Assembly (NCBI GenBank): GCA_016795065.1
Contig: JAEUIU010000062.1
Span: 35,712 to 99,711, forward strand
DNA length: 64,000 nt
Origin: Phycisphaerae bacterium
GTDB lineage: Bacteria; Planctomycetota; Phycisphaerae; Phycisphaerales; SM1A02
Direction: 5' to 3'
Both the position numbers and the translations under genes were made by a program. Each line of letters starts with the position of its first letter. The first letter of the stretch is position 1. Of the stretch, positions 55,683-64,000 are shown piece after piece. The notes beneath the pieces were generated by a model. That model ran no database searches and had not been told where the DNA came from. It saw only the letters and a list, made by a program, of their open reading frames with translations.

Positions 55683-57125
55683 TCAGCGGACTTCGTTGGG
55701 GGTCAACGGGGCCCGCAACGGCCGCTCGGGATCGCGCGGGCCACCGCGCTCCAGGAGATCGGCAAGGCCGGGTCGTGGCGGCGCGTCCATCAGTTCCGCG
55801 ACCAGGCGATCGCGGCGAGTCTTGGTCTGATCGGCCTGCGAATCGTGGGCGAGCTCCGCCCGCTCGCTGTCCAGAAGCTCCGAGAGTGACTTCACTTCGT
55901 GTGCACGCTGTTCGATCTGGAGGTCAATGATCTCCACCGAGATCCGACGCATTTCGTCGCTGGCCCTCGTCGCATCCGCCGGACGCTTGTCGGCACTAGC
56001 GTCGTGATAAGACTGAGCGGCGGTCCGCAGCTCGACGTGCTTGCGGAGCTCGCGCACCTTCTTGTCGTAGAGGTCTCGATCTCGCTCCTTCAGGACGACG
56101 AGCCCGAAGAACCGAGGGCCACCCTGGCGAATGGTCCGGAGTGTCTGTTCGCGATCCTCCACAAGCTGGGCGGCAAGGCGATCGCCGGCCTGCGGCGAGA
56201 CGTCCCGCGCGACAGCAATGAACTTGTCGATCGCCATCTCAAGCCGTCCGTTCGTCGGGCCACCGGGTCGGCCCGGCGCGGGAGGCGGAGGCCCTTCCGA
56301 TGACGACGGCGGAGGCGGAGGCGGAGCGTCCGCTGCCGCCTGCATCGGCGGTCGGTCGCGGCCTCCCCGCTCAATGATCTCCAACAGGCCTTGAGCTGGA
56401 CGCGCTCGCGTCATCTCCTGCATGAGCTGATCCACCAAGGTCCGCATCCCGTCAGGCCTTGCGTCGCGCTCGAGTGACTCGCGTTGTTCCTTGACGAAGA
56501 TCTCCAGCGAGTTGAGTTCGCTGGCCCGCTGCCACAACTGGAGATTGACGATGCGCTCGCAGATCTCCCGCATGCGTTCCATCGCCCGACCGCAATCCTC
56601 GTCGCGGTTGCTGTCCTTGGCTTCGTGATACTGGCCGGCGATCTTCCGGGCCTCGATCTGAGCCTGAAGCTCCTTGACCTTCATGTCATAGAGCCCGCGA
56701 TTCCGCTCCTTCAGCATCACCAGCCCGACAAGACGCTGGCCATTCTGCCGGATCGCCTTCGTGGTGCCTTCACGGTCTGTTTCCAGACGTTCACGAAGTG
56801 TCTTCGCCCACCCCGGCTCGATGTCCTCGGCGACCTCGATGAACCGTTCGACTGGAATGTCCGCACCGCGACGTCCGCCCTCTCCGTTCGAGAGTCGCCG
56901 CTTCGGCGACGCCCCTTCCGGAGGCGCGACGGGACGAATCCGGGCTTGTTCCTCGGGCAAGTTTGCCGGCGGATCGTCCGTAGCCATCGCGTCCCTGGCG
57001 ACCCCTCCTGCGAGAAGCGCCGCGGCGATCAGACCGATCGTCATCGACGAGCAGTGCCGGCGGAAATGCCAATCGGTGTTCATGCCGCGCATTCGAGAGG
57101 AACCTGTACGTCGCCACAACGGCAT
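55683..57125 (-). CDS. Secreted helical protein made of two tandem ~190-aa homologous halves separated by a Pro-rich linker
   Basis: Signal peptide (MTIGLIAAALLAGGVARDAMA). Half 1: VERFIEVAEDIEPGWAKTLRERLETDREGTTKAIRQNGQRLVGLVMLKERNRGLYDMKVKEL. Half 2: IDKFIAVARDVSPQAGDRLAAQLVEDREQTLRTIRQGGPRFFGLVVLKERDRDLYDKKVREL. Both halves end ...ERGG(R/P)RD(R)P. Confidence 0.55.
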   Translation of the reverse strand: MPLWRRTGSSRMRGMNTDWHFRRHCSSMTIGLIAAALLAGGVARDAMATDDPPANLPEEQARIRPVAPPEGASPKRRLSNGEGGRRGADIPVERFIEVAEDIEPGWAKTLRERLETDREGTTKAIRQNGQRLVGLVMLKERNRGLYDMKVKELQAQIEARKIAGQYHEAKDSNRDEDCGRAMERMREICERIVNLQLWQRASELNSLEIFVKEQRESLERDARPDGMRTLVDQLMQEMTRARPAQGLLEIIERGGRDRPPMQAAADAPPPPPPSSSEGPPPPAPGRPGGPTNGRLEMAIDKFIAVARDVSPQAGDRLAAQLVEDREQTLRTIRQGGPRFFGLVVLKERDRDLYDKKVRELRKHVELRTAAQSYHDASADKRPADATRASDEMRRISVEIIDLQIEQRAHEVKSLSELLDSERAELAHDSQADQTKTRRDRLVAELMDAPPRPGLADLLERGGPRDPERPLRAPLTPNEVR

Positions 57126-57197
57126 GGTGTCTCGGTCAGGCCATCCACATGGTCATCTCAGCCGGATCCGCAGCAAGCCGCAAGCGAAGCGAACGGG

Positions 57198-58160
57198 TCA
57201 CGAAGCGCCCGAACCGGTATCAAAACCTGATTCGTATCCGTCGTCGAAGCCAGCCCCATCAAGACTCGAGAACGAATCCTGAGAAAGGCCCAGAATAGCC
57301 CCGAGTTCGCTTTCGATGTCGTCGATCGCGGAGCCCTGCGTTCGGAGGACAGGAACGGCCATGCGGGCCGCATCACTTCCACCGAGCCGATCTTCGTTCA
57401 ACCAAGTGCGGGTCATGCCCACCTGTCCAGCCAGCGAGAAGGCCCTTGGCTGCAGGGCCTGCATCCCGCCAGCCCAGCCGAACTCGGGAGACTGCCGACC
57501 GTCCAAAAGGGCCACCAAGGTCAACTCCGCGACCGAGCTTGCTGAGGAGCCCGCCTCTGCCAGTTCCATGCTGCGCCCCGTCGAGGAAGAGGCCGCGGTG
57601 TCGGGCTGAATGGCAATCCAAGAACCTGCCGCAACAGCCACCGCAGCGGCGGTCGCCAAGGCGACTCGAGCCCACCTGACCGAAGCCGCTGACCAGAGAC
57701 GGTGTGCCCCCCGACCACCCCGCCCGGCCTGTCCGGCAGTACGGGTTCGGCTGAATCCGAATCCGTTCCCCCAAACACCGCCCGAACGTCGGCTGCCGTC
57801 AGTGAGGGGGGCGATGCTGCCGATATGGGCCAGCGATTCGGTCTCATCGCGCTGCCCGGAGAGTGAAGGCTCAAGCTCTGCCGATTCGGAAGCCGCTGCC
57901 AGGTGCGTCCGAGAAGCAGCGAACACCCGATCCGCCAAGGTACCGCTACCCATCATCCGCGTGTCCCGTCCTGCTGGCCCATCAAGCGAGGTTTGGCCAG
58001 ACAGGACGAAGTCCAGCGTCCTATCCAAAGAGCGAAGATCGGGGGAGATCAGCCCGTCATCGCGGTGGATTCGGAACGGATGTCGTTCGACGCTGCCTCC
58101 GCCCACCGGGGTGGGACGGGAGTCGTGTTCGTCAGGAGATGGGTGAGAATCGCGGTCCAC
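57198..58160 (-). CDS. Single-pass membrane protein downstream of the ECF sigma (possible anti-sigma factor); GTG start
   Basis: 320-aa ORF with one central TM (WARVALATAAAVAVAAGSWIAI) and cytoplasmic and extracytoplasmic halves. No recognisable zf-HC2 or RskA motif. Third-position GC is somewhat lower than in neighbours. Confidence 0.45.
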   Translation of the reverse strand: MDRDSHPSPDEHDSRPTPVGGGSVERHPFRIHRDDGLISPDLRSLDRTLDFVLSGQTSLDGPAGRDTRMMGSGTLADRVFAASRTHLAAASESAELEPSLSGQRDETESLAHIGSIAPLTDGSRRSGGVWGNGFGFSRTRTAGQAGRGGRGAHRLWSAASVRWARVALATAAAVAVAAGSWIAIQPDTAASSSTGRSMELAEAGSSASSVAELTLVALLDGRQSPEFGWAGGMQALQPRAFSLAGQVGMTRTWLNEDRLGGSDAARMAVPVLRTQGSAIDDIESELGAILGLSQDSFSSLDGAGFDDGYESGFDTGSGAS

Positions 58161-58163
58161 TAC

Positions 58164-62347: not shown

Positions 62348-62370
62348 GGCACTTCCCCCGGAGAAGTGCC
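62348..62370. other. Perfect 8-bp hairpin in the divergent intergenic region
   Basis: ggcacttc-ccccgga-gaagtgcc. A second 9-bp inverted repeat caacctgac/gtcaggttg lies at about 62218-62266. Confidence 0.5.
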
Positions 62371-62594
62371 CTAAGCGATGTCGGCCAAGGACAAACGTGG
62401 CTTCAGCAGATCCCATCGACCCGCGCAAACACACCTCGCAGGTTCGCACTGGGCTGATCGCCTGAAGTTAGCGACCGCAGACGCCGACGGACGTGGAGCG
62501 TGCCTGCGTTGCGGGCACCGATCCGGGGCGTTCGGGCTGAAGCGTCGGTGGCATAGCCATGATCCGCGCTCAAACCGCACGTAAGGGGCGTTCG

Positions 62595-64000
62595 ATGGGT
62601 TGGTTCTGGAAGAAGGATCGAACTCGACGGAACGGACACGGGGAGACCGGTGCGGGAAGTGCACTGGCCGACCCAGGCGATGGCGCCTCGGCCATCGCCT
62701 TGCTCTCGGACCCTGCCTTCCACAGGGACGTGGAGCGGGCCCTGGCAGACCTGAAGTCCGCCGCCACCATCCTCGAACAGCAGTTCGGATCAACCGTCAC
62801 CACCCTCTATTCGCTCTCCGACCGCGGCCGGGCCCTGGTGGCCAGCAGCGAGCGGCTCGTTGAGATCGCCAGCGGCAAGCATTCCGGCATCCAAGTCCTT
62901 CTTGAAGGAATGGCGCTGGTGGAAGAGCCATTGCGATTCCTGACCGAGTATCGCAATCGCTTTGACGCGGAGCGCGTGATTGAACGACTGACTGAGGACC
63001 GAGCCCTCATTGCCGAGAGCCTGCGGGCCGAGACCGAGATCGACCGAGCGATGGAACCGCTCCGCACGGTGCGCACGCTCTTCAAGGTCGTGGCCGCGCC
63101 GCTTGGCGAGCACGTCCATGCCATCTTTGAGTCGCTTGTCGAGGAGCTTGGCGAGCTGCATACACAGTCACGGAAGCTGGTCGGCAGCAAGTTCGAGGAC
63201 ATGCTTCGCGTGCGGGCCCTGCTCGACGCGATGGTCGAGGGAATGCGATCGCAGCAGCGGTACTGGGCCGAGCTCGCAGGCCAGCGGGCTGAGATGCAGA
63301 AGTCTCTCGGCGGGCTGGAGTCCCAACTGGTCGCCAACGCCTCGCGCGACACGCGCATCGGCAGCACCAGCAAGCGGATCTCCTCGTCGATCGATCAGGT
63401 AGTCACCGGTCTCCAATGGCAGGACATCATCAACCAGAAGCTGGAGCACACCGCCAAGGCGGTGAGCACGCTTCTCGGTCGCATCCGTGACAGGAATGCC
63501 TCGCCAAGCGTGGTGAACAAGGCGGCCCGCCTGGAACTGGCCCAACTCCGAACGGCTCGCGACGAGCTCGCCAAGGCCGAGGACAGCATCAAGGACGGAC
63601 TCGGCAAGGTGCTTGAGGAGCTCAAGCAGTCCGACACCTCCGTTGTTCTCCTGAGCGAGTTCCAGCTTCTCACCACGTCGTCAACGGGTGTGGTCCAACT
63701 CCTTCTGGACAGCATCGAATCGATCGAGTCGCAGCTCGAATCCGCCCTGACCAGCGCGGGCGAGAGCATGAACACGATCCGCGAGATCGGCGCCTCAGCC
63801 ACGGCCCTGACCTCGGCGGTGCGCGAACTCTCCGAGCGGACCCTTCTGGTCGGACTCAACGCCCAGGTGCAGGCATGCAAGGTTGCCCAAGGCGCCGGGC
63901 TGGGCGTCCTCTCGGCGCGCACGAGCGACGTCTCTTGGCAGGTGTCGAAGATCGGCGACGCCGTCGCTGCCAAGCTCGATCGCATCACGGGCGACCTCGC
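62595..64000 (+). CDS. Soluble coiled-coil protein with a divergent methyl-accepting (MCP signalling) domain; runs off the right edge
   Basis: My own translation from ATG 62595 (MGWFWKKDRTRRNG...) is open to the window end, so it is absent from the ORF track. The segment VRELSERTLLVGLNAQVQACKVAQGAGLGVLSARTSDVSWQVSKIG aligns by eye to the MCP hairpin core [32 protein letters not shown]. No TM segment is visible. Confidence 0.5.
   Translation, partial: MGWFWKKDRTRRNGHGETGAGSALADPGDGASAIALLSDPAFHRDVERALADLKSAATILEQQFGSTVTTLYSLSDRGRALVASSERLVEIASGKHSGIQVLLEGMALVEEPLRFLTEYRNRFDAERVIERLTEDRALIAESLRAETEIDRAMEPLRTVRTLFKVVAAPLGEHVHAIFESLVEELGELHTQSRKLVGSKFEDMLRVRALLDAMVEGMRSQQRYWAELAGQRAEMQKSLGGLESQLVANASRDTRIGSTSKRISSSIDQVVTGLQWQDIINQKLEHTAKAVSTLLGRIRDRNASPSVVNKAARLELAQLRTARDELAKAEDSIKDGLGKVLEELKQSDTSVVLLSEFQLLTTSSTGVVQLLLDSIESIESQLESALTSAGESMNTIREIGASATALTSAVRELSERTLLVGLNAQVQACKVAQGAGLGVLSARTSDVSWQVSKIGDAVAAKLDRITGDL

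Follow-up and report, generated by a model that had tools for sequence, protein, structure and literature searches.

The last part of the 64,000-nt stretch of Phycisphaerae bacterium DNA analyzed here (contig JAEUIU010000062.1 of assembly GCA_016795065.1, positions 35,712 to 99,711 of the forward strand; hereafter the window) encodes a large fused regulator, a STAS-domain protein, an extracytoplasmic function (ECF) sigma factor, a transmembrane (TM) protein and a secreted protein with an internal duplication, and it ends within a divergently transcribed gene whose product resembles methyl-accepting chemotaxis proteins (MCPs). A preliminary description had read positions 55683-64000 as one integrated signaling system, in which a fused phosphatase and kinase together with the STAS protein control the ECF sigma factor, with the TM protein as the partner of the sigma factor and the duplicated protein as the output. 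Our analysis points instead to two adjacent, separable modules, and we regard this reading of the region as probable: module A is a putative partner switch located beside chemosensory (che) genes, and module B is an ECF sigma factor cassette.

What separates the two modules is gene order. Seven Phycisphaerae contigs carry the fused regulator gene (L001, L003, L004, L005, L007, L008 and L012), L004 being the source contig of the same organism as the window, including the DNA beyond window base 64000. In three of these seven, the closest relatives L004, L005 and L007, the STAS gene is followed by the genes for the sigma factor, the TM protein and the duplicated protein; in L001, L003, L008 and L012 it is followed by other genes. 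In the relative genome GCA_044220875.1, the genes for the sigma factor (81% identity), the TM protein (36%) and the duplicated protein (59%), together with an ATP-binding cassette (ABC) transporter, were located on contig 1 (L011), after lpxK, a pfkB-family kinase gene and dnaB, while the regulator, the STAS gene and the che cluster were located on contig 2 (L001). The presence of the sigma cassette and the switch on separate contigs of this genome reveals a synteny breakpoint between the STAS and sigma genes. Downstream of the cassette, an oligopeptide ABC transporter is also collinear in L004, L005 and L007, and since L005 and L007 share this collinearity, the adjacency of the STAS and sigma genes reflects general synteny. 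The ECF cassette was not present in any of the other 36 loci carrying the MCP-like gene, and L019 and L025 displayed just a 26%-identical sigma-like match, upstream and on the opposite strand. The view of the region as a single block does not hold in these genomes, and with the order kept on only three of seven contigs, the proposed link from the STAS module to the ECF sigma factor is not supported by synteny.

On its other side, module A adjoins che genes that lie beyond the window. The window stops at residue 468 of the 641 encoded by the plus-strand MCP-like gene, and the statement that cheA and cheW were not nearby proved to be an artifact of this edge: on the source contig (L004:1-9611), a full che cluster comes right after the MCP-like gene, comprising cheY, cheA, cheW, a HAMP-MCP gene (two TM segments), a gene for a 142-amino-acid (aa) receiver, cheB and cheR. 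The order of che cluster, 640-aa gene and divergent fused regulator plus STAS gene is repeated in L001, L003, L007, L008 and L012 (45-62% identity); the L005 contig ends upstream, so the che side of that locus is cut off. Contigs resembling a Verrucomicrobiota locus showed the same arrangement. Identity of CheY was 83-93% among the Phycisphaerae loci and 55-75% for other metagenome loci and one Verrucomicrobiota locus. For the family of the MCP-like gene, which we labeled fam640, cheY (or cheY-cheA) was found directly 3′ of the fam640 gene in 28 of 33 informative loci, with a gap of 3-16 bp in many, and genes for a REC-PP2C-kinase protein (REC, receiver domain) and a STAS protein were found directly 5′ of it in 18 of 24. 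The loci L030, L033, L042 and L043 carry fam640 in che clusters without the PP2C regulator.

Some che clusters were also observed to contain extra STAS genes (L010:18417-18695, L026:18110-18409 and L042:1301-1606). The order in L042, STAS-cheY-cheA-cheW-MCP-cheR-cheD-fam640-cheB, recalls the ‘stage 1’ F7 order (PMC7184735).

The central gene of module A (59812..62205, minus strand) encodes a 797-aa protein with the architecture REC1-HPt-REC2-PP2C-RsbW-like kinase. Its open reading frame (ORF) spans 59812-62220 on the minus strand (TTG, 802 aa), and the likely start is the ATG at 62205; the resulting 797-aa form is identical to a database protein of a Phycisphaerae metagenome-assembled genome that starts at this ATG. 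The earlier reading of two receivers, an HPt domain, a PP2C phosphatase and an RsbW-like kinase was confirmed by Pfam, with each match above its gathering score: Response_reg for REC1 (61816-62166) and REC2 (61006-61344, residues 293-405), with 1.6e-48 for the two; Hpt (61429-61680; 7e-9); SpoIIE for the PP2C domain (about 60241-60819; 6.8e-17, 62.5 bits vs a cut-off of 25); and HATPase_c_2 for the kinase domain (59827-60156; 1.2e-10, 42 bits vs a cut-off of 27.4), all on the minus strand. The motifs quoted for this protein are conserved as well. Alignment with 12 full-length homologues showed conservation of D68, T101 and K123 in REC1, of H213 in the HPt domain, and of D344, T372 and K394 in REC2, which is directly N-terminal to the PP2C domain. 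The same homologues keep the PP2C motifs GGDFF (457-461), TDVSGHD (476-482), SDG (607-609) and DD, along with the kinase N-box EAVLNAMTHG (712-722) and the G-boxes DSGSGH (750-755) and HRGL, and across 21 homologues the N-box and G-boxes were invariant. When compared with PDB entries, the profile of the C-terminal domain matched RsbW (6m36, E 1.2e-6) and SpoIIAB (about 7e-4), and REC2 plus PP2C aligned to the REC-PP2C regulator 3eq2 (E 1.9e-16). Between the MCP-like and regulator genes lies a divergent intergenic region of 389 bp (62206..62594), which presumably contains the promoters; a sigma-70 consensus scan of 62206-62594 found no promoter-like site, and the sigma-70 promoter scans did not rise above chance.

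The STAS gene (59426..59758, minus strand) is located 53 bp 3′ of the regulator gene and encodes a single-domain protein of 110 aa and of anti-sigma-factor antagonist type, with matches to Pfam STAS (2.6e-11), NCBIfam ant_ant_sig, and TM1442 and SpoIIAA in the PDB. In agreement with the preliminary description, which had noted a STAS antagonist with a phosphorylatable Ser in DSVGL, the predicted phosphorylatable residue is Ser62 in this motif, and DS[VAM]GLN is kept in 8/8 orthologues. Identity within Phycisphaerae was 66-77% for the STAS protein vs 45-62% for the regulator. From these domains and the STAS partner, a partner-switching module was the right frame for this part of the region. The small TM ORF that had been counted as part of the system fared differently. 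This 63-aa ORF (59188..59379, minus strand), with a hydrophobic C-terminus, had no family match, and tblastn found a counterpart only in L004, from the same organism. The two closest syntenic loci, L005 and L007, have no counterpart, the STAS-sigma spacer of L005 being just 190 bp; the ORF is organism-specific and doubtful as a gene. The corresponding spacer of L007 contains a 12-bp tandem repeat (L007:6772-6838).

The design of module A has clear precedents. In the HptB-HsbR-HsbA system of Pseudomonas aeruginosa (PA3345-PA3347), with hybrid kinases upstream, an HPt donor is combined with a regulator made up of REC, PP2C and kinase/anti-sigma (GHKL) domains and with a STAS antagonist (PMC6482189). 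HsbR both phosphorylates and dephosphorylates this single-domain antagonist on a conserved Ser (PMC6482189). The window protein shares with HsbR three C-terminal domains in identical order, an adjoining STAS gene and an HPt, but its HPt is fused with an extra receiver at the regulator N-terminus, whereas HptB is separate, and its neighborhood consists of che rather than flagellar genes; the targets in Pseudomonas are FlgM, HsbD and RpoS. CrsR-CrsA of Shewanella oneidensis is built alike, its genes lying within the che1 (F7) cluster (PMC9855816), and genes for STAS proteins and Ser phosphatases are also found in the stage 1/2 (early) F7 che clusters of gamma- and beta-proteobacteria (PMC7184735). 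Like CrsR-CrsA, module A places a REC-PP2C-kinase protein and a STAS protein in a che cluster with cheY, cheA, cheW, cheR, cheB and a soluble chemoreceptor, and, compared by gene content alone, the locus resembles the stage 1/2 F7 clusters. Unlike the window protein, CrsR has no REC-HPt extension, and the Shewanella che1 cluster has Aer2 and McpA receptors and CheD, in contrast to the unannotated MCP-like family found here. RpoS, the target of CrsR, is a proteobacterial sigma factor.

More distant systems share parts of this design. RsbU/RsbV/RsbW-SigB and SpoIIE/SpoIIAA/SpoIIAB-SigF of Bacillus share the three folds and work by the same principle, a STAS Ser that can be phosphorylated, but their phosphatase and kinase are separate and a group-3 sigma factor is encoded in the operon, whereas the window protein has both enzymes fused behind a phosphorelay. 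No SigB/SigF-type (group-3) sigma gene is adjacent to the switch, the sole adjacent sigma factor being of the ECF type and not a conserved neighbor. In SypE of Vibrio fischeri, the domain order is kinase-REC-PP2C, unlike that of the window protein. SypE is a single polypeptide that unites a receiver and a PP2C phosphatase with a serine kinase of the RsbW-like kind and acts on the STAS protein SypA (PMC10120452, PMC3610818), which makes it similar in combining kinase, receiver and phosphatase, and different in having no HPt and no che context. The claim that no described system has this combination does not hold, as a REC-PP2C-kinase and STAS design fed by an HPt is known from HptB-HsbR-HsbA and from CrsR-CrsA in che1; the STAS and Ser-phosphatase genes of early F7 clusters are a further match in parts and logic. 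The new features are the fusion of REC-HPt in cis, the presence of the switch in Phycisphaerae (one related locus being annotated Verrucomicrobiota) and the companion family of MCP-like proteins, which has no annotation.

From homology, we infer which reactions the enzymes catalyze, which way phosphoryl groups flow and what the targets are, building on the domains, catalytic residues, synteny, promoter motif and homologies that were observed. Module A (62205 down to 59426 on the minus strand, plus the divergent gene from 62595) would be an HsbR/CrsR-type partner switch of a che-like cluster. The output of the regulator would consist of a PP2C phosphatase and an RsbW-like serine kinase with opposing activities, for which Ser62 of the STAS protein would be the common substrate. 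If it works as HsbR does, the regulator would act as a STAS kinase while unphosphorylated, and a phosphoryl group on Asp344 of REC2 would shift the balance from STAS kinase to STAS phosphatase. Phosphate would reach Asp344 through a built-in relay, from Asp68 via His213, and the phosphodonor may be an unlinked or nearby hybrid kinase and/or the neighboring CheA. The state of the STAS protein may be read by a sigma factor that the kinase domain sequesters, in the way CrsR/HsbR hold RpoS, or by the soluble MCP-like protein encoded next to the switch.

The N-terminal extension of the regulator resembles the end of a sensor kinase. More than 100 database proteins of about 520 aa have the organization REC-PP2C-HATPase_c_2, with 36-48% identity to the C-terminal two-thirds of the regulator; the N-terminal REC-HPt was present only in the 12 nearest of these homologues, and a few others have a fused STAS instead. 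In the locus annotated Verrucomicrobiota (L009) and in a further non-Phycisphaerae relative (L010), the regulator and STAS genes are followed by the gene for a large sensor (hybrid) kinase ending in REC-HPt, and this REC-HPt is 34-36% identical to residues 18-268 of the window protein (E 1e-30 to 1e-32). NCBIfam models also aligned the regulator N-terminus to the REC-HPt ends of TorS, BarA and ArcB. Given this homology of REC1-HPt to the C-terminal part of hybrid kinases, part of the relay (Asp68-His213-Asp344) appears to be built into the regulator, and the homologies are most simply read as a fusion, in Phycisphaerae, of the cognate kinase's relay end onto the regulator. A hybrid kinase with HisKA-HATPase_c-REC is encoded at L001:14552-16372 and L003:14441-16867, two genes from the STAS gene, following a gene for a thioredoxin-like protein. 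With 37-40% identity to the L010 hybrid kinase in the kinase core, it is a candidate for the cognate kinase of the fused regulator.

Module B (59061 down to 55683) would consist of the sigma gene followed by an ECF-type promoter that drives the genes for the TM protein and the secreted duplicated protein. The sigma gene (58456..59061, minus strand) encodes 201 aa from Met23 of its ORF, with regions sigma2 and sigma4 only (Pfam Sigma70_r2/r4; NCBIfam sigma70-ECF, 81.8 bits vs a cut-off of 42.9). Its product shares 81-84% identity with the counterparts in L005, L007 and L011, and a start at Met23 is supported by alignment of the N-termini. Between the sigma and TM genes we found an ECF-type promoter-like motif, TGCAAT-N17-CGTT (58319..58345, minus strand), of which the window has one copy vs 0.02-0.10 expected. 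The motif occurs once each in L004, L005 (4662-4688), L007 (7674-7700) and L011 (6952-6977), always in the sigma/TM intergenic region. ECF promoters, among them those of Bacillus subtilis sigma-M, -X and -W, typically have this form (AAC/AAT, 17 nt, CGT). A wider conserved form, [GA]AA[GC][TC]CTGCAATCCT-N15-CGTTC, also lies upstream of the TM gene and not of the sigma gene, and since the window has no second copy, TGCAAT-N17-CGTT gives no sign of sigma autoregulation.

In the leader of the TM gene, five tandem copies of the 13-bp unit CTGAACTGGAACC (58164..58228, minus strand) end 4 nt before the GTG start and gave the highest Tandem Repeats Finder score in the window (123). This array had been listed among the features of the system; it is real (13 bp x 5), but it is organism-specific, being absent from all 42 other loci examined, with an equal copy number in the window and L004. 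At the same position, L005, L007 and L011 have a single GAT[TC]GGA(A)CC-like box, 3-5 nt before a conserved GTG-GAC-CGC start, and the array looks like a five-fold amplification of that box. We considered the array as a conserved regulatory element and rejected this, as it is absent from the other loci and the conserved promoter motif lies upstream of it.

The TM gene (57198..58160, minus strand; GTG start at 58160) encodes a single-pass protein of 320 aa with its TM helix at 166-185. Conservation in L005, L007 and L011 covers the cytoplasmic N-terminus, MDR...HRDDGLISPDLR...LADRVFAASR, as well as the C-terminal region. The protein had no Pfam or NCBIfam match and no zf-HC2/RskA-type anti-sigma domain; it is a putative anti-sigma factor. 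The last gene (55683..57125, minus strand) encodes 480 aa with an N-terminal hydrophobic segment (25-43) and two helical domains of about 165 aa joined by a Pro-rich linker, the internal repeat showing 42% identity over 167 aa (E=7e-42). An AlphaFold2 (AF2) single-sequence model likewise displayed two helical domains (pLDDT 59.6). Pfam returned nothing at E<=0.01, none of the structural matches reached E<1, and orthologues are present in L005, L007 and L011. The ECF sigma factor, the single TM helix of the 320-aa ORF and the internal duplication of the 480-aa protein all stand as first described. In L005, 12-bp tandem repeats lie in frame in the Pro-rich linker of the duplicated protein (L005:6555-6706), and this lineage seems to have many short tandem arrays that vary.

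The most novel element of the locus is the companion MCP-like family, and not the ECF link of the preliminary description. The window contains the first 468 codons of the 641-aa soluble protein (62595..64000, plus strand). No TM segment was predicted in this protein and no ligand-binding or sensor domain was recognizable, nor did the member in the window have a Pfam match even at E<=10, MCPsignal included; NCBIfam and the PDB profile search returned nothing significant. A word-indexed search yielded 15 relatives, and a full profile search yielded 3,053 clusters (at 50% identity) at E<=1e-3, 344 of them at E<=1e-30, mostly of 560-730 aa and with no Pfam model. Weak MCPsignal matches were found in 23/70 members (best 1.2e-7). 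Homology to MCPs emerged after the family had been enlarged: with the 15-member alignment, hhalign gave a probability of 35%, and with a 152-member alignment it gave 93% (E 2.6e-7), tip on tip, with the hairpin tip LLVGLNAQVQAC..GAGLGVLSARTS of the MCP-like protein aligned to the MCP tip. An AF2 model (pLDDT 74.5) displayed an all-helical hairpin (helices 352-429 and 436-531, tip 430-435), for which the top Foldseek matches were MCPs (E 4e-4) with low TM-scores. At the level of remote homology, this agrees with the initial reading of a soluble, divergent protein with an MCP signaling domain. The family resembles MCPs in its hairpin tip alignment, in the weak MCPsignal matches of relatives and in its position beside cheY-cheA, whereas the window protein differs from them in having no Pfam MCPsignal match, no TM or sensor domain, and a C-terminus of NVELF rather than NWETF.

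Across 113 members (mean identity 25%), the only invariant columns were N422, located in the tip, and Q274, D277 and Q281, which sit in G-L-Q-[WF]-Q-D-I-x-x-Q-K-L-x-H (residues 272-285 region). At the motif level, [FW]-Q-D-x3-Q of fam640 fits the CheZ signature AXXFQ + DXXXQ (PMC7750401). The Pfam CheZ profile gave weak matches in 5/70 members (best 0.0011), and hhalign of fam640 against E. coli CheZ and a 100-sequence enterobacterial CheZ alignment, plus a local hidden Markov model, gave probabilities of 2-3%, with the best local alignment falling each time on the CheZ active-site helix. We treat the possible likeness to CheZ as a lead and not a finding. The C-terminus is ELF in 112/152 members, mostly within NVELF and following a disordered tail, and another ELF box precedes it by 30-50 residues; a YTMASER box is conserved too. 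A cluster look-up for ten distant members returned no protein names or taxa.

Several observations weigh against reading the region as an HsbR/CrsR-type switch next to a separable cassette. The ECF sigma gene lies directly 3′ of the STAS gene on the same strand in the three close relatives L004, L005 and L007, where co-regulation is possible, and the boundary between the two genes is weak, as no convincing terminator was found between them and a hairpin-like element at the STAS stop scored no better than chance. The likeness to both HsbR and CrsR is one of architecture alone. In the 64-kb window, tblastn with four hybrid kinases and Pfam searches of large ORFs found no histidine kinase (HisKA), and if the HPt receives phosphate directly from a hybrid kinase that has a REC itself, REC1 would be without a clear role. 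The adjacency and the missing terminator would equally favor the one integrated system, with the STAS module in control of the ECF sigma factor. That system is weakened by the loci L001, L003, L008 and L012, where the cassette is absent next to the STAS gene, by its location after dnaB on another contig in the genome of L001, by its absence from the 36 other MCP-like loci, and by the TM partner and conserved ECF-type promoter motif that the cassette has of its own. To our knowledge, wherever an RsbW-type kinase has a known binding target, this is a group-3 sigma factor, sigma-S or the primary sigma factor and not an ECF sigma factor, which we also count against the integrated system. We consider a single integrated system highly improbable.

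For the wiring of the switch itself, the neighboring che genes suggest two further possibilities. CheA may phosphorylate REC1 (or REC2), with transfer from Asp68 via His213 to Asp344, such that the switch would be the transcriptional output of the chemosensory pathway. The Shewanella che1 cluster does contain crsR-crsA, and Che1 has been suggested to act in RpoS regulation (PMC9855816). CheA is also the only kinase conserved beside the module in all Phycisphaerae loci; however, the che cluster already has two single-domain CheY-like proteins plus CheB, and REC1 is closest to hybrid-kinase receivers, not CheY. Further, the full hybrid kinase ending in REC-HPt beside the STAS gene of the non-Phycisphaerae loci points to a non-Che donor, L001 and L003 have a homologous hybrid kinase two genes away, and we know of no demonstration of phosphotransfer from CheA to CrsR. 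This direction of signaling seems to us conceivable but unlikely. In the reverse direction, a hybrid kinase would feed the regulator, and the STAS protein in one of its phospho-states would bind the sensor-less MCP-like protein and set CheA activity, an idea similar to one derived from genomics for Campylobacterota (PMC9239204). Such a role would fit the absence of a recognizable ligand-binding domain or TM segment from the MCP-like family, the order REC-PP2C-kinase, STAS, MCP-like gene, cheY and cheA on one strand that is common in collinear metagenome loci, and the higher conservation of STAS relative to the regulator, as expected of several binding partners. Yet the family also occurs in the che clusters without a PP2C regulator and so is not dependent on the regulator, and the MCP assignment rests on remote homology; we find this direction decidedly doubtful. 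Similarly speculative, and to be held with equally little confidence, is a single circuit around fam640, which would combine an MCP-type CheA/CheW-binding tip, a CheZ-type [FW]QD-x3-Q phosphatase site for CheY~P and an NVELF tethering peptide, and would read the phospho-state of STAS, the Phycisphaerae regulator having absorbed the REC-HPt of its sensor kinase. If true, this circuit would have an intramolecular Asp-His-Asp relay ending in a bifunctional serine kinase/phosphatase.

Elsewhere in the window, two ORFs of 706 and 926 aa (40544-42664 and 42694-45474, both minus strand) had no Pfam match at E<=1e-5 and adjoin a Ser/Thr protein kinase gene (45667-47514). The window also encodes a Pkinase-WD40 protein of 1149 aa (2232-5681, plus strand), a tricorn-like S41 protease (15033-18506, minus strand) and an OmpR-type response regulator (18270-19304, plus strand). 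The Cpn60/GroEL gene (22952-24793) has at its 3′ end a 9-bp x 8 repeat, GGCGGCATG (24713-24787), which we take to be the usual Gly-Gly-Met C-terminal tail, an ordinary feature. Searches of the window for tRNAs and Rfam families returned none.

Read as two adjacent modules, the region illustrates how a window edge and mere adjacency can mimic an “integrated system”. The HsbR/CrsR-type switch, so far known from Proteobacteria, would now extend to Phycisphaerae and at least one Verrucomicrobiota-annotated genome, again beside che genes, and this recurrence points to an old, recurrent coupling of chemosensory arrays and STAS-based switches. The cis-fused REC-HPt offers a natural experiment on which part of an upstream kinase must be near the regulator. 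The MCP-like family, large, unannotated and with a CheZ-like invariant motif next to cheY, provides a concrete target for work on non-canonical chemosensory systems.

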